Shown here: in pieces, positions 11,502 through 20,321 of the stretch
How the letters are laid out: the number at the start of each line of letters is the position of its first letter
How positions within the stretch are numbered: the stretch's first letter is position 1
Virus record (IMG/VR): IMGVR_UViG_3300029310_000003
DNA: 64,000 nucleotides
Strand: one strand, 5' to 3'
Origin: a virus
Translations under genes and position numbers: made by a program
Notes under the pieces: generated by a model
Seen by the model: only the letters and a program-made list of their open reading frames with translations
What the model was told of the DNA's origin: nothing
The model's database searches: none

Positions 11502-11666
11502 ATGGAAAAAGAACTTATCAAAATGATCGAAAAAACCAAGAATCAGGAAGCATTTCTGAACTTCCTGAAATTCTGCCTCCCGCGCGTGGAATCGGGTCTG
11601 ACGGTCGAAGAGATCTGGAACGAATGGCAGATCATCCGGAGCCACAGCGAGGAGCCACGCGTATGA
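11502..11666 (+). CDS. hypothetical small protein (54 aa), paralog of 19043..19216
   Basis: Internal ATG with an AAAGGA RBS. Shares the pattern KNQ..F..F..FC..R......TVE.IWN.W with the minus-strand 57-aa protein. Confidence 0.5.
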   Translation: MEKELIKMIEKTKNQEAFLNFLKFCLPRVESGLTVEEIWNEWQIIRSHSEEPRV

Positions 11667-12085
11667 CCGCACAGAAGATGGACGCGCTGGACATTGAAAT
11701 TTACCAGCTGATGAAGGAACTGGGCATTCCGGCCAGCATGACGGGCTATGACTACCTCCGCAGCGCCATCCGCCGCAGCGCAGAAAACGGCTGTCCCAAA
11801 ATTTCGACCATGAGCGCGGACGGGATCTATCCGAGGATCGCCGAAGAATTCGGCGTCAGCTCAAACAGCGTGGAGCGTGCGATCCGGAAGTCCATCGGAG
11901 TCGGAGTCGAGCGCGCCGGGGGCAGCAAATTTTATAAGGTGTTCGGCTTGAGCATGGACGCGGACAAAGCCCGTCCGACGAATGCGCAGTTCATCCGGCA
12001 GGCGGCGTTGGAGGCTCTCTGCCGGGAATCTGAAAAAAATCTGAAAACAGCGGGACAAAAGCGTGAAACGTGGCAGATTGGATAA
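11663..12085 (+). CDS. Spo0A C-terminal (DNA-binding) domain protein lacking a receiver domain
   Basis: 'GIPASMTGYDYLRSAI', 'IYPRIAEEFGVSSNSVERAIRKSI' and 'ARPTNAQFI' parallel Spo0A 'GVPAHIKGYLYLREAI', '[24 protein letters not shown]' and 'KPTNSEFI'. The start overlaps the upstream stop. Confidence 0.75.
   Translation: MTAQKMDALDIEIYQLMKELGIPASMTGYDYLRSAIRRSAENGCPKISTMSADGIYPRIAEEFGVSSNSVERAIRKSIGVGVERAGGSKFYKVFGLSMDADKARPTNAQFIRQAALEALCRESEKNLKTAGQKRETWQIG
12052..12079 (+). promoter_or_regulatory. cassette promoter-like motif (GGGACA-N16-CAGATT)
   Basis: GGGACA 12052-12057, CAGATT 12074-12079. Lies in the 3' end of the preceding CDS, 47 nt before ATG 12127. Confidence 0.45.
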
Positions 12086-13542: not shown

Positions 13543-14628
13543 ATGAGCTTCCCCAAAGCGTATGAAAAATTTCGGTCGGCCATGATCGCCTACGAAGATA
13601 ACCTCCGGGCGTTGGGACGTTCCGGAGTCACGATCAAAAATCAGGAACAGATCTTCAAAAATTTCTCCGGCTTCCTTCTGGAAAACAAATTGTGGGATCA
13701 TGAGGAGGGCTTTCCGGAGATCCTCGCATGGCGCGACCAGATGCGCCGGGACGGCAAAAAACCGTCCACCATCAAGCAGTATCTGACCGTCCTTTCTGCC
13801 ATGTACAATTTCGCCAGCTCCGAAGAACTCGGCGAAAACCGCTGGTACGACCGGAATCCCGTCGCAAAGCTCCTCATGCCGGATACGCGAAAGCTCGACA
13901 AGCGACCGTATGAGCAATTTTTGACCGACGAACAGGTCATGCTTCTCTGGCGAAATAACCCTCCCGCGAAAACCGTGGAAAGCCCGAAATTCTGGCCGCG
14001 AAATTACGCCATCGTCATTTTGCTTCTGACAACGGAGCTTCGCAACAGTGAGCTTCTGGCGCTGACGCCTGCGGATCTCGACTGGGAAAATTCCGAGCTG
14101 TACGTCGAGCACGGCAAGGGCGATAAATTCCGTCCGGTCGAATTCCCGCCGCTTGCGCAGACCGCCGTCCGGCTGTATCTTCGCAGCGGACTGCGTCCGG
14201 CGGCCGCAGGCGACCATGACCCGCTTTTTGGCACGGAGGCAACCAAGGAATTCAAGGGAACCAATCGGGGCGCAGAATGGCACGCAGGCACACGTCAGTG
14301 GCTTTCGGACGTCGTGAAGCGCCATGTAAAAACCGTGACCGGCGTGGATATGATCCGTTCGCACGATTTGCGGCACGTCGGCGCACGGCTCGATCTCAAC
14401 AGCGGCATGAGCTTTGAGGAGCTTCAGGCAAAACTCGGCCATGAATCCGTAGCGACCACGCAGATCTATTCCGGCAAGCTGACCAGCCGGAAAAACCGCC
14501 GTATGACGAAGATCGTGCAGGAGGAGAAGGAACGGCAGGCGCAGCGGAACGTCCTGCGTCTGGAAGAGTCGGGAGATGATTTTTTCGAACAGCTCCGGCT
14601 GAAACAGCCCCGGCCGGAGATCGCCTGA
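13543..14628 (+). CDS. int: tyrosine recombinase / phage integrase
   Basis: 361 aa. N-terminal SAM-like core-binding region. C-terminal 'HDLRHVGARL...LGHESVATTQIYSG' carries the HxxR...H...Y catalytic signature. Confidence 0.9.
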   Translation: MSFPKAYEKFRSAMIAYEDNLRALGRSGVTIKNQEQIFKNFSGFLLENKLWDHEEGFPEILAWRDQMRRDGKKPSTIKQYLTVLSAMYNFASSEELGENRWYDRNPVAKLLMPDTRKLDKRPYEQFLTDEQVMLLWRNNPPAKTVESPKFWPRNYAIVILLLTTELRNSELLALTPADLDWENSELYVEHGKGDKFRPVEFPPLAQTAVRLYLRSGLRPAAAGDHDPLFGTEATKEFKGTNRGAEWHAGTRQWLSDVVKRHVKTVTGVDMIRSHDLRHVGARLDLNSGMSFEELQAKLGHESVATTQIYSGKLTSRKNRRMTKIVQEEKERQAQRNVLRLEESGDDFFEQLRLKQPRPEIA

Positions 14629-14680
14629 ACAAACCAGAAAAACAGAAATGATCCGGGTTTCGTCGTAAGCCCGGAGGCAC

Positions 14681-14748
14681 GGCGGAGGCAGGTGCGTCGT
14701 GGGGATAACCCACACCCCGCGATTTCGGTTCAAATCCGGATTCCGCCG
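14681..14748 (+). other. tRNA-like fragment (good acceptor + T-arm, defective D/anticodon region); possible att core
   Basis: ggcggag...ttcgg-ttcaaat-ccgga-ttccgcc-g. Only 36 nt separate the acceptor 5' arm from the T-stem, and no canonical anticodon loop can be drawn. Confidence 0.3.
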
Positions 14749-14941
14749 CAATGCTGTGAGTTTGGGCATGGCTCACAGCTGGTCATAACTGACCTCCTTT
14801 CTGTGAAGAAAAGCGTCACCCATGTAAGCGAAGGCGCTCACCGGAACATTTCAGAGATTCCGGTGCTCCAGGCTGGGAAGCCTGGCCATGGGTTTTCGGG
14901 AAGAACGCTCCCGCACCGGAGTAAAACGGGGAGCCATTTAT

Positions 14942-15015
14942 GTGCGTGTAGTTTAATGGCAGAACATCAGACTTCCAATCTGATGGTGGGAGTTCGATTC
15001 TCCTCACGCACTCCA
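14942..15015 (+). tRNA. tRNA-Gly (anticodon UCC), CCA encoded
   Basis: Manual cloverleaf: acceptor gtgcgtg/cacgcac, D-stem gttt/gaac, anticodon stem tcaga/tctga with loop cTTCCaa, T-arm gggag-ttcgatt-ctcct, then tCCA. Confidence 0.85.
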
Positions 15016-15382
15016 CATGGGTATTGCGGCGGACTCAGGGAAAGTTTTGAGGTTCCAAAGGCTTGGTGAAACGATATATCCGGCCATCCGCTCAATCTGT
15101 AGGTAGTGCAAGTACGACAGATTGCGAATTTAATTAGCTGGCTCCGGCTTAATGTGTGAAAAAACGGATGCGACCGATGCACCGGCGCAGGGCTGAAAAG
15201 TTCCGTGGCTTACCCTCCCGGCCTTCCGACAGTCTGCTGTGAGGCGTAAAGGATGGAAGAAAAACCGGCGTGGCGACGCAGACCAACTTCTGCACGGAAG
15301 CGTCTAGGCGTCGAGTAACGGCGGCTCCGGAGCCGGGAGGCAGGCTGTAAAAACCAAGAAAAAAAGGCAAGGAGGAAAACAA

Positions 15383-15706
15383 ATGAGCTTGGAAATTCGC
15401 TATCTCACCAACGGCACGAAAAATGTCTACGTCGTCGCAGAGAAGGACGTGGCGCCGGTCGCGGTCCATTTCTACAGCGAACGGGACGAAATCCCCTATC
15501 AGATCCGTAACTACGCACCGAAAGGAAAGCCAATGTTTGTCGGGCCGGATTCGGCAAGAAACCTTTTTGCAATGAAAGCCCTGTATCCGGAGCTGATCCA
15601 CGAATTCTGCGACAAGCAGGAGTACGCCGGATCACCCTGCATCTTCGAGTCGTGCAGCCTCGCGGACTGGAAAACCTGCAAATACCGCTGTACCGCAAAA
15701 ATCTGA
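15383..15706 (+). CDS. hypothetical protein (107 aa)
   Basis: Strong AAGGAGGA RBS 7 nt upstream; unbiased composition. It sits between the two tRNAs. Confidence 0.6.
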   Translation: MSLEIRYLTNGTKNVYVVAEKDVAPVAVHFYSERDEIPYQIRNYAPKGKPMFVGPDSARNLFAMKALYPELIHEFCDKQEYAGSPCIFESCSLADWKTCKYRCTAKI

Positions 15707-16025
15707 ATGAAATCATGCGGCATTTGGCAAAGGGCAGTTACGAGCAGCTGTCCCAAGGCCGTTCGATTCGGTCACGCCGCACCATCGTAAAAATCGTGTG
15801 ACTAAGGTTTTCGTAGAACGCCGCGCATTTTCAAGATGCAAATCGTTCAGCTTGCCGGAGAAAGCCAACGCGTGGCAGATCCGGATGAAGTCACTTGAGA
15901 AGCCGAACTGACAAAACCGGCCGCACCGGAATCCGGTGTGAAGCGGAAACGGCAGGATGCCGCAAAGAACTGCCCGTTGGCCAGCGCGCATGGCCTCGCG
16001 TCCGGTACGTCAAGCCGGAAACGAC

Positions 16026-16101
16026 GGGCCGTTATCTCAAAGGCTAGAGCAACTCGCTCATAACGGGTAAAATCTCGGTTCGACTCCGGGACGGCCCACC
16101 A
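16026..16101 (+). tRNA. tRNA with CAU anticodon (elongator Met or Ile2), CCA encoded
   Basis: Acceptor gggccgt/acggccc, anticodon stem actcg/cgggt with loop ctCATaa, T-arm ctcgg-ttcgact-ccggg, then aCCA. Lacks the three G-C pairs of an initiator anticodon stem. Confidence 0.8.
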
Positions 16102-16129
16102 TGAAATTTTCGGGAAAGGAGGAAAAACC

Positions 16130-16402
16130 ATGAACAAGGAAGCACTTGCACAGGCCGTAGCCAATCGCACGAATATGCCGAAGGGCGCAGCGCTGGAATC
16201 CATCGACGCGGTTTTCGAAAGCATCCGTGAAGCGCTGATCTCGCACGAGACGGTGAACATTCCGGGCTTCGGAAAATTCGAAGCGCCGTATAAGGCGTCC
16301 AGAGTCGCAAGAAACCCGGCGACCGGCGGAACCATTTCGGTTCCTGCGCATCACGGCGTGAAATTCGCGCCCGCGAAGGCGCTGAAGGATGCCGTACATT
16401 AA
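16130..16402 (+). CDS. HU/IHF-family DNA-binding protein
   Basis: 90 aa. 'MNKEALAQAVA...ESIREALISHETVNIPGFGKFEAPYKASRVARNPATGGTISVPAHHGVKFAPAKALKDAV' is a canonical HU sequence. AAGGAGGA RBS. Confidence 0.9.
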   Translation: MNKEALAQAVANRTNMPKGAALESIDAVFESIREALISHETVNIPGFGKFEAPYKASRVARNPATGGTISVPAHHGVKFAPAKALKDAVH

Positions 16403-16471
16403 GGAACCTCTGAATAAATCCGGGCGAAAGCCCGGAGTACATAAACGCCAGAAAAATGAAAGGAGCAGCCC

Positions 16472-17017
16472 ATGGAACAGGAAATTCATCGCGGAGACGT
16501 ATTCTGGATCGCGGATGCACAAACGGCGGTCGGCTCCGAGTACACAAAAACCCGGCCGGCCGTGATCGTGTCCAACGAAGCAAATAACCGATACTCCGCA
16601 AATCTGGAGATCGTCTGGCTCACAACGGCCAATAAAAAGCCGCTTCCGACGCACGTCACGCTCTATTCCGCACCGCGCGTATCCGTCGCGCTTTGCGAGT
16701 GCGTCACAACGATCTCCAAGGAGCGTCTCCGGGAATATTATTGCACGCTCACGTCGGAGGAAATGGCGCATATCGACCGTGCCATCCGCATTTCGCTGGG
16801 GCTTCCGGAGCCTGCCGAAAAACCGGAAAAAACCGCATCGTCCGAAAAAACGCCGGATGATCTCCAGCTTTCCAACCTCCGCAGCGACTATCAGCTCCTG
16901 CTGAAAAAGCACGACGCTCTGCTTGCGCAGCAGGCCGTCTATGAGAAGATCTGCATGGCCTTCATTCCAAACTGGACGCCGCAGGCCAAAGCCGCAGAGA
17001 ACGGGAGCCGCGTATGA
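16472..17017 (+). CDS. MazF/PemK-family endoribonuclease toxin with ~65-aa C-terminal extension
   Basis: 'RGDVFWIADAQTAVGSEYTKTRPAVIVSNE...LEIVWLTTANKKPLPTHV...TISKERL' matches the PemK/MazF core. Residues from about 115 to 181 are an extra Pro/Glu-rich plus helical tail. Confidence 0.8.
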   Translation: MEQEIHRGDVFWIADAQTAVGSEYTKTRPAVIVSNEANNRYSANLEIVWLTTANKKPLPTHVTLYSAPRVSVALCECVTTISKERLREYYCTLTSEEMAHIDRAIRISLGLPEPAEKPEKTASSEKTPDDLQLSNLRSDYQLLLKKHDALLAQQAVYEKICMAFIPNWTPQAKAAENGSRV

Positions 17018-18123
17018 TCTACCTCGACCACGCAGCGACCTCTCCCCTTCTGGCCACCGCCCGCCGGGAATTTTACCGGGCCTCGCAATTCAGCTGGGGC
17101 AACCCAAATTCCGTCCATTCCTTCGGGATCGCAGCCGCGCGGGAGCTGGAAAGAGCGCAGAGGATCGTCGCCTATTGCCTTTCATGCAAGCCGGAACAGG
17201 TGATCTTCACCTCCTCCGCCACGGAAAGCTGCCGATTTGCCATGAACGCCATGATGTACGAATGCGGCAGCGTCCATATTTCCAGCTTTGAGCATAAGGC
17301 CGTTTCTGCCGGATGGGAAGACAGTTTCCGCTTTTTCGGGATCAACCGCAGCACCTCCGGCTTCGCACATATCCATACCGGCAACGAAACGGGCGAAATT
17401 TATGACCTCGCAAAAGCATTCGAGCCGTACACCGTCTGTTTTTCGGACTGCACGGCAGCCATGGGAAAAGCGCCCCTCGACTTCCGGCATGGAAAATGGT
17501 CGTACATCGCGGGCGGCGGACATAAATTCGGCGCACCCATCGGCATCGGCGTCCTGATCGCCAGAAAACCGGAGGTGATCCGAGAGCTTTTCCATCCGGC
17601 AACGCCCGCCGTTCCTCTGGCCGCAGCCCTCGCGCAGGCGCTTTTCTTCCGCACGGAGCATATCGCAGAATTTGCGGATACCGCCGGATACTTGCATGAC
17701 CGCCTGATCGATGGTATCATGGAGGAAATTCCAGACGCGCAGCTGAACGGCACGAAATATCGTGGAAACGAAAAAACACAGTCGCCCTATATCACGAGCA
17801 TTTCTTTCCCAAACATCGAAAATCATGCGCTTGTTCTGCGGATGTCCGCCGACGGCCTGATGGCGTCCTCCGGAGCCGCCTGTTCCAGCGGAGAAAACGA
17901 GCCGTCTCCGGTGCTTCTGGAATCCGGCTATCCCGCCGCCCGCGCAAGGAGCGCCGTCCGCTTTTCTCTGGACTATAAGCTCGACCCCTGCGCTTACGAA
18001 TTTTCGCACGATCTTGGCATCGACCGCCGCCGGGACGAAGCCATCATCGACCACGCCGTCAAAATCGTCGCGCAGAACGTCCGGGAGCTGAAAAAATTAT
18101 CTCCCGCGCGGGACAAAGCGTAA
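17014..18123 (+). CDS. class V aminotransferase / cysteine desulfurase (NifS/IscS-like)
   Basis: 'IYLDHAATSP', 'NPNSVHSFG', 'FTSSATES', 'HTGNETG', the PLP-Lys motif 'GGHKFGAPIGIGVL' and the catalytic Cys 'SSGAACSSG'. Its ATG overlaps the MazF stop (ATGA). Confidence 0.8.
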   Translation: MIYLDHAATSPLLATARREFYRASQFSWGNPNSVHSFGIAAARELERAQRIVAYCLSCKPEQVIFTSSATESCRFAMNAMMYECGSVHISSFEHKAVSAGWEDSFRFFGINRSTSGFAHIHTGNETGEIYDLAKAFEPYTVCFSDCTAAMGKAPLDFRHGKWSYIAGGGHKFGAPIGIGVLIARKPEVIRELFHPATPAVPLAAALAQALFFRTEHIAEFADTAGYLHDRLIDGIMEEIPDAQLNGTKYRGNEKTQSPYITSISFPNIENHALVLRMSADGLMASSGAACSSGENEPSPVLLESGYPAARARSAVRFSLDYKLDPCAYEFSHDLGIDRRRDEAIIDHAVKIVAQNVRELKKLSPARDKA

Positions 18124-18137
18124 AATACCCGTAGAAT
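18110..18137 (+). promoter_or_regulatory. cassette promoter-like motif (GGGACA-N16-TAGAAT)
   Basis: GGGACA 18110-18115, TAGAAT 18132-18137. The motif ends 43 nt before ATG 18181. Confidence 0.5.
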
Positions 18138-18180
18138 CCAAACCAAGCCCAACCGGGCAAAAAATAAAAGGAGAACAGAT

Positions 18181-18522
18181 ATGGATATTCAGGATATGGC
18201 CGCCGCAATGGCGCAGAAAAATGAAAACTTCCACGGAACGGTGCAGAACGAGGAAAAGGCGGAGATCTTCCACACCGTCCACGAGCACGCCGCCGCCGTC
18301 GCAAAAGCGCTCCGCACGCCGATGCACACCGAAGGCTTGGAGCTGCACGCGCAGTGCGCGTCCGTCTCCGTCGATTTTCCGCTTCCAACGGGAATTCTGA
18401 ACGAGAACATCCGCCGCAGGATCTCGGAAATGACCAAGCTCTGCGACATGGTGACGTATGCGGACGTGAACTGCCGTCTGCGCATGACCTTCACCGTCGC
18501 AAACGTCTGGAAGGAGGAATGA
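18181..18522 (+). CDS. hypothetical protein (113 aa)
   Basis: AAAGGAGAA RBS; ORF track entry. Confidence 0.55.
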   Translation: MDIQDMAAAMAQKNENFHGTVQNEEKAEIFHTVHEHAAAVAKALRTPMHTEGLELHAQCASVSVDFPLPTGILNENIRRRISEMTKLCDMVTYADVNCRLRMTFTVANVWKEE

Positions 18523-18526
18523 ATAT

Positions 18527-18721
18527 TTGGAAAAGCCAAAGCTCCGCACGAACGTCATAAGCCATGGATACACATTTCTCGTGACGTTTCACGGCCGAAA
18601 AAGCAAGGAGATTCGAGTGGAAGCAGAAAGCATCGACGCGGCAATTTTGAAGCTTCCCGCTGACCGTATGTGCGCCAGACTTCTCCGTGAAGATACATGG
18701 GAGGTCGCAGAAAATGAATAA
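18527..18721 (+). CDS. hypothetical protein (64 aa), TTG start
   Basis: TTG preceded by AAGGAGGA at about 10 nt; co-linear with its neighbours. Confidence 0.4.
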   Translation: MEKPKLRTNVISHGYTFLVTFHGRKSKEIRVEAESIDAAILKLPADRMCARLLREDTWEVAENE

Positions 18722-19004
18722 CGATCAGGAAATGAAGCAATTCGCCGACCGCTTGTGGGAATATTTTCTTCCGAAGGTCGAAGTGCTGACGCGCGCGAAC
18801 GTCTGGTATTTCCGCGCGCAGGTGACAAAGGCCGCAGAAAACGGGCGTATCACCGTCCAACGCCCCTTCGATAAAGAAATCGCCCTTCCCTATGTGACCA
18901 GCATGGCAGCCGCATCCATAGGCTCACAGGTCACGGTTTTCGTCCTCGGCAGCAGCCTCACGAACGCCGTCATCATCGGCGACGGCACGCTTTCCAATTT
19001 ATAA
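18714..19004 (+). CDS. hypothetical protein (96 aa), possibly OB-fold/spike-like
   Basis: ATG overlaps the upstream stop; GGGAGG RBS. 'GRITVQRPFDKEIALPYV...GSQVTVFVLGSSLTNAVIIGDG' is reminiscent of gpV-type small spike domains. This is a weak call. Confidence 0.5.
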   Translation: MNNDQEMKQFADRLWEYFLPKVEVLTRANVWYFRAQVTKAAENGRITVQRPFDKEIALPYVTSMAAASIGSQVTVFVLGSSLTNAVIIGDGTLSNL

Positions 19005-19034
19005 GAAAAAACCGGGAGGCGTAAAACCTCCCGG
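19004..19034 (-). terminator. rho-independent terminator of the convergent minus-strand unit
   Basis: ccgggagg/cctcccgg stem, with a T7 run on the minus strand. Confidence 0.6.
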
Positions 19035-19042
19035 AATCCCAT

Positions 19043-19216
19043 TCAGCTCTGGCTTTCGCACCATGCGTTCCAGATGTTCTCCACAGTCTCGCTTTCATCG
19101 TCCTTCAGGCGCTCCATGCAAAAAAGCATGAAGTCTGCAAATCGTTTTTGATTCTTCACCTGACGGGAAATTTCGAGCAACTCTTCCTGTTCAAACAAAA
19201 TCGTGCTGCAACTCAT
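19043..19216 (-). CDS. hypothetical small protein (57 aa), paralog of 11502..11666
   Basis: Internal ATG (MSCSTILF...) about 11 nt after GGAGG. Conserved KNQ/FC/TVENIWN.W pattern. Confidence 0.5.
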   Translation of the reverse strand: MSCSTILFEQEELLEISRQVKNQKRFADFMLFCMERLKDDESETVENIWNAWCESQS

Positions 19217-19233
19217 GTTTTTCATACCTCCAT

Positions 19234-19995
19234 TCACATCTGCGCATCCGAAATCAAACTGGCGGCTTTCCGGCGGATAATTGCTTCGAACGCCGGTCGA
19301 AGCTTCCGGTCTCGGGAAATGACCTGCAAAATCGAAACCTGTTTGCATTCCGTTTCCGTTGCGCCGTTTTTCCGCATTCGGTTGCGCAGACGTGTCTGGC
19401 GGCATTTTAAGTCAACGCCGGTTTCCGATTCCAACTCAGCGTAGCGGTCGCTGCGGAACTTTCTGTGATTTCCGCCGTACTGCTCCACAAGCGTGTTGAT
19501 CTGGTGATTCATCGCCGAAGTCCAATCGTCCGGGCTGACCGCCGGGGCGGAGAAAATGTCCAGCGTTTTCTGCATGGTCTGTTCCGTGCGTTCTGCGCGG
19601 TTTTCCAGAGCCTTGAGACGGCGTTCCTGCTCCACCATGAGCTGTGCTTGTGCAAGAAGCTGTTCCGCCGGAGACAACTGCGGATTTTTGATTTGCGCTT
19701 CCATACGGTTGAATGCGTCGATGTACTTGAGTTTCCATTCGAGCGCAGACTTTCCAGTGAAGCCCATGACCAGCAGTGAGAAACCATCACGATTCATGAG
19801 GTACGCGCGCTGCGGTCTGCCGTAGCTGTCCGGAATTTCGACCGAGAAAAACATCTGCTCAAAATTGAGCACATCTTTTCTGAGGTCATCAATGTCACGA
19901 AGAACATTCCGATGCTCTTTTTCGAAGTGTTCGGCGATATCCCGGCTGCTTGCGACGGGTTGACCGTTCTGGTTAATGGTGATTAAATCTTTCAT
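19234..19995 (-). CDS. phage regulatory protein Rha-like N-terminus + ORF6C C-terminus (antirepressor)
   Basis: 'VASSRDIAEHFEKEHRNVLRDIDDL...YLMNRDGFSLLVMGFTGKSALEWKLKYIDAFN' fits the Rha pattern. 'LLAQAQLMVEQERRLKALE' is nearly identical to the ORF6C of 10658..11467. Confidence 0.75.
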   Translation of the reverse strand: MKDLITINQNGQPVASSRDIAEHFEKEHRNVLRDIDDLRKDVLNFEQMFFSVEIPDSYGRPQRAYLMNRDGFSLLVMGFTGKSALEWKLKYIDAFNRMEAQIKNPQLSPAEQLLAQAQLMVEQERRLKALENRAERTEQTMQKTLDIFSAPAVSPDDWTSAMNHQINTLVEQYGGNHRKFRSDRYAELESETGVDLKCRQTRLRNRMRKNGATETECKQVSILQVISRDRKLRPAFEAIIRRKAASLISDAQM

Positions 19996-20114: not shown

Positions 20115-20291
20115 TTATTTTTTGACCGTGGCTTTCACCATCTGAATTCCCAAACGAATCACATCGCTCTTTGTCTTACTGAGTTTTTCACAGCAATACT
20201 CCAAATCCGACATTGTATCTCGATCTGCCAAAAATTTCACCTGTGTATCTTTCGGGTTTTCAGATTTCGGTCTGCCTGTACGGGGCGACAT
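20115..20291 (-). CDS. ribbon-helix-helix transcriptional regulator (58 aa)
   Basis: ATG 6 nt after AGGTGA. 'GRPKSENPKDTQVKFLADRDTMSDLEYCCEKLSKTKSDVIRLGIQMV' fits the RHH pattern. Confidence 0.6.
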   Translation of the reverse strand: MSPRTGRPKSENPKDTQVKFLADRDTMSDLEYCCEKLSKTKSDVIRLGIQMVKATVKK

Positions 20292-20321
20292 TTGTATCAC
20301 CTACTTTCTATGTACATGTTT

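Follow-up and report, generated by a model that had tools for sequence, protein, structure and literature searches.

Positions 16026-19004 of the window, by which we mean the whole stretch of 64,000 nucleotides analysed here from the IMG/VR virus record IMGVR_UViG_3300029310_000003, encode a tRNA, an HU-family protein, an extended MazF endoribonuclease, a NifS/IscS-like cysteine desulfurase (NifS for short) and three small proteins (s1, s2 and s3). On balance, this gene string appears to be a mosaic accessory cassette and not a toxin-antitoxin-like system, and our confidence in the functions of the individual genes is lower than in this modular reading. A dedicated MazF-desulfurase system is not supported, because the RNase and the desulfurase have separate distributions among related phages. 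Both proteins belong to catalogued, uncharacterised phage families, listed in PHROGs as phrog_1936 ("MazF-like growth inhibitor") and phrog_12787 ("unknown function"), respectively, and what is new is their combination within one lineage. All genes of the string are under purifying selection.

Distribution of MazF and NifS among related phages

The comparison set comprised about 200 related phage loci. A scan of IMG/VR with NifS yielded 54 loci, and the reciprocal scan with the MazF alignment yielded 553 relatives of the extended MazF, the best 80 of which were inspected as loci. In clade A, which includes about 30 loci with NifS proteins 57-95% identical to that of the window, the genes follow the order tRNAs-HU-MazF-NifS-s1-s2-s3. 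Clade B (about 25 loci, including GenBank MT835520, NifS 33-38% identical) contains the tRNA array, HU, NifS, s1, s2 and s3 in varying order and lacks MazF; in these loci NifS often abuts the integrase.

The distribution of MazF is equally independent of NifS. The desulfurase is present in 10 of the best 80 MazF-family loci, and all ten come from one phage lineage with the full cassette. In about 68 of the same 80 loci MazF is solitary, with neither a desulfurase nor an antitoxin adjoining it, and these loci represent unrelated phage contexts in which the protein has the same tail. In particular, the Faecalibacterium phages FP_Brigit and FP_Lagaffe encode the same extended MazF alone. Since the solitary relatives share both the tail and the missing antitoxin, these are traits of the MazF family and not features of its pairing with NifS.

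In the window the two genes overlap by 4 bp (gtATGAtc, with the NifS start codon ATG at 17014-17016 and the MazF stop codon TGA at 17015-17017). This overlap is kept in most clade A loci, and MazF-NifS adjacency including the overlap was observed in about 40 loci in total, all of them from one phage lineage, so that the pairs count as one evolutionary event. An earlier interpretation of this DNA, made from its letters and open reading frames (ORFs) and referred to here as the sequence-only reading, had noted the ATGA overlap, which is read directly in the sequence, and had called for a survey of the pairing in relatives. The pairing proved to be conserved, with MazF identity down to 42%. The further suggestion that MazF and the desulfurase act as one system did not survive the same survey, given the single lineage, the clade B cassettes without MazF and the many solitary MazF genes. 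A literature search found no paper describing a MazF-desulfurase system, as the sequence-only reading had supposed, and nothing relevant on extended phage MazF proteins.

The extended MazF and its tail

The gene at 16472..17017 (plus strand) encodes a phage-type extended MazF/PemK endoribonuclease of 181 amino acids (PF02452, 9.7e-22; phrog_1936, 3.8e-25). The PF02452 match spans residues 7-109 and scores 77.7 bits against a cut-off of 23.1. The protein consists of a core (residues 1-111), a variable linker (112-127) and a long helix (128-164), and the whole tail (112-181) comprises about 70 residues, close to the extension of about 65 residues that had been proposed. The solved structures closest to the core are the MazF proteins of Staphylococcus aureus and Bacillus subtilis (phmmer 1e-16), and a Foldseek comparison of the MazF model with these two gave an E-value of 2.5e-12, a target-normalised template-modelling (TM) score of about 0.8 and 36-40% identity. 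Residues R28 and T51 align to the catalytic arginine (R25 in B. subtilis, R29 in Escherichia coli) and threonine (T48 and T52, respectively), and both are invariant across 32-33 family members; the absence of catalytic residues had been named beforehand as a finding that would count against the sequence-only reading. Within the phage lineage, the ratio of nonsynonymous to synonymous substitution rates (dN/dS) amounts to 0.05 in the core and to 0.26 in the tail helix. The invariant R28 and T51, the match to the SH3-like barrel fold of MazF and the low dN/dS of the core predict that the enzyme is very probably active.

The long relatives of this protein (150-205 residues), including FP_Brigit gp83 and FP_Lagaffe gp50, all end with a variable linker and a conserved amphipathic C-terminal helix. 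The helix carries the family motif ERDxYKxLYExLL, which in the window MazF reads LLAQQAVYEKICMAF. An AlphaFold2 (AF2) model built on an alignment of 33 sequences has a confident core, a disordered linker at residues 117-126 with a predicted local distance difference test score (pLDDT) below 50, and one helix at residues 128-164 with block-mean pLDDT of about 76-91; the predicted TM score (pTM) of the model is 0.56.

In 25 related phage loci among L091-L156, which are solo MazF relatives (for example, L091:4340-4348, L104:4340-4350 and L106:4340-4349), a poly-G tract is located exactly at the junction of the MazF core and tail; it is 7-12 residues long (mode 9). Tracts of G9 or G12 place the conserved tail in frame, G7 or G10 lead to a stop directly after the core, and G8 or G11 produce an alternative form of 148 residues. 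This length variation reflects either phase variation of the tail or an assembly error at the homopolymer.

The absence of an antitoxin gene, postulated in the sequence-only reading with the reservation that a small ORF might have been missed, was examined in several ways. Upstream of MazF lies HU, separated by a 69-bp gap that holds only a hairpin, and the 3' end of MazF is overlapped by NifS, which leaves no adjoining antitoxin ORF in the window. Likewise, no antitoxin ORF adjoins MazF in any lineage member or related locus, and tblastn with the B. subtilis and E. coli MazE proteins gave no match in 80 MazF-family loci. Clustering of the immediate neighbours of solo MazF members revealed no common small partner; these neighbours include ThyX, SSB, C5 and N6 methylases, primase-like proteins and others. 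Thus no missed ORF came to light, and the lack of an antitoxin is the norm for the extended MazF family.

Individual candidates for an antitoxin were also rejected. HU, s1 and s2 each occur without MazF and are ruled out. Close relatives such as L005 and L028 have MazF but lack the ribbon-helix-helix gene at 20115-20300. An ORF at 15383, described below, lies at a variable distance from MazF and has no antitoxin features.

The tail could itself take the part of an antitoxin. In such a single-chain toxin-antitoxin (TA) protein, the C-terminal helix would fold back via the linker and obstruct the RNA groove of the dimer, in the manner of the C-terminal helix of the Firmicute MazE. Cleavage of the linker by a protease, or a stimulus such as superinfection, would free the core, making the prophage gene an abortive-infection or exclusion device or a means of timed host shut-off. 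No adjoining antitoxin gene was seen in about 120 family members surveyed, the disordered linker leads into an amphipathic helix that is conserved and under purifying selection, and the gene is located in the lysogeny-side arm of the phage, all of which would suit this scheme. The core is, moreover, closest to the B. subtilis and S. aureus enzymes, whose antitoxins neutralise them via a C-terminal helix (PDB entry 4ME7), and by eye the MazE stretch RDLxRxxYxEM resembles the tail motif ERDxYKxLYExLL.

However, the resemblance of the tail to MazE found no support at the sequence level, since the alignment of a profile of 19 tail sequences to B. subtilis MazE by hhalign had a probability of 0.1, and phmmer of the tail alone against the PDB returned chance matches only. 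The single 37-residue helix of the AF2 monomer, with its pTM of 0.56, suggests a coiled coil rather than a plug docked on the core. In contigs L012, L026 and L084 the tail is frame-shifted or absent beside an intact core, and it is likewise broken in some poly-G variants, and a lysogen would not survive this if nothing but the tail held the toxin in check. In addition, many family members are found in early replication modules, and some in large lytic Lactobacillus phages. We consider a single-chain TA protein unlikely. Quite improbable, in our view, is an extension of the same idea, according to which the extended MazF would be a single-polypeptide TA switch whose helix gates the RNase and whose tail is toggled by the poly-G tract in the sister subfamily, translationally coupled in the window lineage to a desulfurase, so that, during infection or exclusion, RNA cleavage and sulfur mobilisation or tRNA thiolation would jointly affect the apparatus of translation.

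The window MazF was compared with several known systems. With the type II MazEF/PemIK systems (B. subtilis EndoA/EndoAI, S. aureus MazEF) it shares the fold, the catalytic Arg and Thr and 36-40% identity of the core, but it is phage-borne, has no antitoxin gene on either side, carries the 70-residue linker-helix tail and is flanked by HU and a desulfurase. The PHROG 1936 proteins FP_Brigit gp83 and FP_Lagaffe gp50 belong to the same length class of 150-205 residues and have the same helix motif and the same missing antitoxin. Most members of that family, however, are located in replication or nucleotide-metabolism modules, whereas the window MazF lies in a lysogeny-side accessory arm and is coupled to a desulfurase, and its lineage has the motif YEKIC instead of YKxLYE. 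CapRel(SJ46) is a fused toxin-antitoxin of prophage location, with a C-terminal extension on the toxin domain and no separate antitoxin; the concept is alike, but the toxin folds are unrelated, and the comparison of the MazF tail with MazE was negative. The RegB protein of phage T4 is a phage-encoded, sequence-specific RNase with a toxin fold of the RelE/YoeB type, no antitoxin and no helical tail, which acts as a phage-timed mRNA regulator. The window MazF is likewise a predicted phage RNase with a toxin fold and no antitoxin, and it differs from RegB in its MazF fold and its helical tail.

The NifS-like desulfurase

The next gene, at 17014..18123 (plus strand), encodes a short group-I NifS/IscS-like cysteine desulfurase of 369 amino acids (Aminotran_5, PF00266, 86.8 bits against a cut-off of 21.5; phrog_12787, 2e-43). 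No variation was seen among 43 distinct phage homologues at T70, H94, N124, D145, H170-K171, C290 or R316, so the earlier statement that the lysine binding pyridoxal phosphate (PLP) and the catalytic cysteine are intact holds for K171 and C290 in all of them. The same set includes the Thr, His and Asp that contact PLP and the Asn and Arg of the substrate site. The persulfide loop around C290 is SSGAACSSG (SSG[SA]AC in the homologues). The position of Gln183 in IscS is filled by Ala in the window protein and in all 43 homologues. The protein aligns to IscS and to the Mycobacterium tuberculosis IscS in two blocks, with about 30 residues of the PLP domain deleted (IscS 108-149). Its size and catalytic set are the same in loci with and without MazF. 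With its catalytic residues invariant in the 43 homologues and a dN/dS of 0.17, the protein is probably a conserved, shortened and active desulfurase.

This protein shares with NifS/IscS, DndA and SspA the class-V PLP fold, the HK motif with the Schiff-base lysine, the SSG(S/A)AC loop and the active-site His, Asp, Asn and Arg. It differs from NifS/IscS in being phage-encoded and about 30 residues shorter, in the substitution of Gln183 to Ala, in the lack of nearby IscU/NifU, ThiI, MnmA or DndC, and in its scores, which are far under the NCBIfam equivalog cut-offs for NifS (TIGR03402, 150 against 530.75), DndA (110.6 against 480) and IscS (100 against 643). Among the hidden Markov models of the PADLOC defence library, only SspA (1e-50) and DndA (4e-48) matched, and these matches reflect generic similarity at the level of NifS. 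As to partners, no acceptor or scaffold of the NifU/IscU, ThiI, MnmA or TusA type was detected among the neighbours, the scanned ORFs of the window or one related replication arm. In three loci of one sub-lineage (L158:9385-10278, L160:8526-9419 and L082:8003-8557), a gene of the PAPS-reductase family (PF01507) is located downstream of the NifS-like gene, at a distance of 3-4 kb. A tblastn search of the window gave no PAPS_reduct homologue, and nearly all related loci lack the family, these three excepted.

The close packing of the two genes could mean that the desulfurase and MazF are functionally coupled, so that NifS or persulfide chemistry would neutralise or activate MazF, or thiolated tRNA or RNA, phage tRNAs included, would set the targets of MazF. 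The ATGA overlap and the gene order are kept in about 40 loci in which MazF is 42-50% and NifS 54-62% identical across sub-lineages. A tRNA array is always found upstream, often with Gln(UUG) or Glu(UUC), which are the tRNAs that receive 2-thiouridine at position 34. Some MazF enzymes are reported to cleave tRNAs (PMC4756823). Nevertheless, about 25 loci have the NifS cassette but no MazF, about 68 of the best 80 MazF loci have the extended MazF but no NifS, all pairs come from one lineage and amount to one evolutionary event, the desulfurase is the same in size and catalytic residues whether MazF is present or not, ARAGORN finds no Gln, Glu or Lys tRNA in the window, and no paper describes such a system. 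ATGA overlaps are, besides, common between phage genes of unrelated function. Coupling of this kind is very improbable, and neutralisation of MazF by the desulfurase, one of the possibilities raised in the sequence-only reading, is judged unlikely.

Least probable of all is that the desulfurase is a DndA/SspA-like sulfur donor for phosphorothioation of phage DNA or for other nucleic-acid thiolation, with HU as a DNA-binding partner, the small proteins as accessory factors and MazF unrelated: the SspA and DndA models are its best matches in the defence library and three related loci have the PF01507 gene (the DndC/SspD family) downstream, but the scores are at the generic NifS level and well under the DndA equivalog cut-off, PAPS_reduct homologues are absent from the window and nearly absent from the related loci, and no DndD/E or SspB/C candidates were seen with the defence library or in scans of the window and the related arm.

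Neighbouring genes, phage setting and origin of the cassette

The source of the window is a temperate siphovirus of about 85 kb from gut Oscillospiraceae. IMG/VR contigs near-identical to the window are 80-87 kb long, and its distant relatives are found in metagenome-assembled genomes of Oscillospiraceae and Eubacteriales, which point to the host. A search of INPHARED gave no phage closely matching the window DNA. The plus-strand arm (1-19 kb) contains the gene of a tyrosine integrase (13543-14628) together with genes for Bro-N, ORF6N, zinc-ribbon, SHOCT and Spo0A_C proteins, and from about 20.8 kb on, the minus strand encodes the lysin, tail proteins, tape measure and portal, followed further on by RecT and SSB. 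These surrounding genes place the string in the accessory arm between integrase and lysin of a temperate gut siphovirus. A similar location has been described in Staphylococcus phages, whose pemK/mazF genes, along with other accessory genes, are flanked by the lysis module on one side and the integrase on the other (PMC6507118).

The string ends at a strong hairpin with a T-run, a terminator on the minus strand at 19012..19034, which occupies the convergent gap between s3 and a Rha-like gene on the minus strand and marks the 3' limit of the plus-strand genes. No sigma-70 promoter was predicted on the plus strand upstream of the string, and a scan of positions 14600-19300 against Rfam revealed no riboswitch or other known RNA besides two tRNAs.

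The first of these, and the first of the tRNA array upstream of HU, is tRNA-Gly(TCC) at 14942..15015 (plus strand; ARAGORN, Rfam tRNA 71.5 bits). The second, at 16026..16101 (plus strand; ARAGORN, Rfam 50.8 bits), has the anticodon CAT and an encoded 3' CCA, and directly precedes HU, as had been noted in the sequence-only reading. An initiator tRNA-fMet is distinguished by a mismatch at positions 1-72 and an anticodon stem closed by three G-C pairs. Here G1 is paired with C72 and the anticodon stem is ACUCG/CGGGU, so the tRNA is of elongator and not initiator type; its sequence predicts an elongator Met tRNA, or Ile2 if C34 is lysidinylated. The tRNA arrays at this position vary among relatives (Gly, Gln, Met, Pro, Trp, Glu, Thr), and within the arrays of clade B ARAGORN reported two cases of "tRNA-???" with a two-base anticodon (aa), at L033:1620-1694 and L041:2867-2941.

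Between the two tRNAs of the window lies an ORF of 107 amino acids with no assigned function (15383..15706, plus strand), which is restricted to the MazF-bearing lineage. Its tblastn identity in clade A loci is 62-97%, it has no match in clade B, and comparison with family libraries gave no match. The segment 15164-15209, between tRNA-Gly and this ORF, is 86-96% identical to MT835520.1 51426-51471 and MT835513.1 17265-17341. These scaffolds are human faecal phages, otherwise unrelated, and contain the sole near-identical DNA in GenBank phages.

HU (16130..16402, plus strand) is a DNA-binding protein of the HU/IHF family with 90 amino acids (PF00216, 3.8e-27, 94.8 bits, residues 1-89 covered; phrog_379, 7.6e-26) and a dN/dS of 0.19. 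It was detected in 55 of 57 loci and is located 3' of the tRNA array in every related locus. It may be an architectural factor, for example for integration. The spacer between HU and MazF contains the GC-rich hairpin TCCGGGCGAAAGCCCGGA (16419..16436, plus strand), with a perfect 7-bp stem and a GAAA loop. It has no U-tract on the plus strand, and the terminator scan flagged it as terminator-like on the minus strand only. The hairpin may be an element of RNA stability, processing or attenuation, and might set different levels of HU and of MazF and NifS.

The three small genes that follow NifS, which the sequence-only reading had left without a known family, are conserved, and comparison with family libraries gave no family match beyond a weak match of s3 to phrog_2416. 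The s1 gene (18181..18522, plus strand) encodes an alpha/beta protein of 113 amino acids with homologues in 54 loci and a dN/dS of 0.09, and co-occurs with NifS and HU whether MazF is present or not. It has no conserved cysteine and is thus no obvious persulfide carrier. Its AF2 model is a small alpha/beta fold (pLDDT 73) with no significant fold match in the PDB, and its sole match in BFVD is an uncharacterised Siphoviridae protein. Of the structure predictions proposed earlier for the MazF tail and the small proteins, the former thus gave a helix, whereas the model of s1 matched no PDB fold.

The s2 protein (18527..18721, plus strand; 64 amino acids, dN/dS 0.38) has the conserved core TNV...F.V...AES..AA.L.L and represents a conserved domain of 60 residues, which in one sub-lineage forms the C-terminal part of a 239-residue protein. 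The s3 gene (18714..19004, plus strand; the mechanical ORF starts at 18687) encodes about 96 amino acids. Searches of the PDB with the s2 and s3 profiles found nothing. The s3 protein is homologous (about 73% identity) to the N-terminal domain of fibre-like proteins of 269, 391 and 594 residues with glycine linkers in related phages, which are encoded on the opposite strand directly downstream of the lysin (L006:8562-9737, L027:7574-8383 and L030:8275-10059, all minus strand). The s3 domain differs in orientation and length between close relatives and is a short stand-alone ORF in the window. The s3 protein is probably related to the virion or envelope, outside any sulfur or RNase function.

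Two other genes of these phages lie outside the string. The 153-residue phage protein encoded at 11624-12085 (plus strand) matches Pfam Spo0A_C (1e-22) without a receiver domain, and could modulate host sporulation control from the phage. In a related phage of the same lineage, the replication arm contains a second gene of the integrase family, which includes a DUF7575 zinc-ribbon (L162:5618-6769, minus strand).

The mosaic origin that we favour for the string would have had two stages. An older conserved core would have consisted of the phage tRNA array, HU, the trimmed and catalytically intact group-I desulfurase and s1-s2-s3. In one lineage, a solitary phage-type MazF of PHROG 1936 would have been placed between HU and the desulfurase and then retained, its tight packing against NifS providing translational coupling via the ATGA overlap. 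As no promoter is predicted between the tRNAs and the genes of the string and the gaps are 28-70 bp, we infer that they are co-transcribed. MazF would cut single-stranded RNA at the canonical Arg/Thr site and would need no dedicated antitoxin if the phage controls its timing or level; as a stand-alone RNase it may serve in host shut-off, transcript processing or exclusion, while the amphipathic C-terminal helix on its flexible linker would regulate or oligomerise it. Separately, the desulfurase may benefit the phage by feeding persulfide sulfur to acceptors of the host, which would use it, for example, in the thiolation of tRNA or in Fe-S assembly. A precedent is provided by phage lambda, whose growth is promoted by IscS-to-TusA tRNA thiolation via programmed frameshifting (PMC3296357).

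Three observations weigh against this modular history. The 4-bp junction, kept across sub-lineages in which MazF proteins are only 42-50% identical, shows a stability that would not be expected of a casual insertion. The activity of the desulfurase could have been altered by the loss of Gln183 and the deletion in its PLP domain. Finally, the scanned ORFs of the window and one related replication arm contained no sulfur acceptor (PP-loop enzyme, radical-SAM enzyme or IscU/NifU), so that any use of the persulfide is a guess.

Under the mosaic origin, the pair of an RNase toxin and a sulfur enzyme would be the lineage-specific synteny of two independent modules, and it is a caution against inferring function from one gene neighbourhood. 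The analysis also exposes two widespread, uncharacterised phage families, namely the antitoxin-less MazF with a helical tail, present in hundreds of gut-phage copies, and the trimmed, intact desulfurase, which always accompanies a tRNA array and HU in Oscillospiraceae phages. New modes of phage control over host RNA, or over the metabolism of sulfur and tRNA modification, could come to light in either family.

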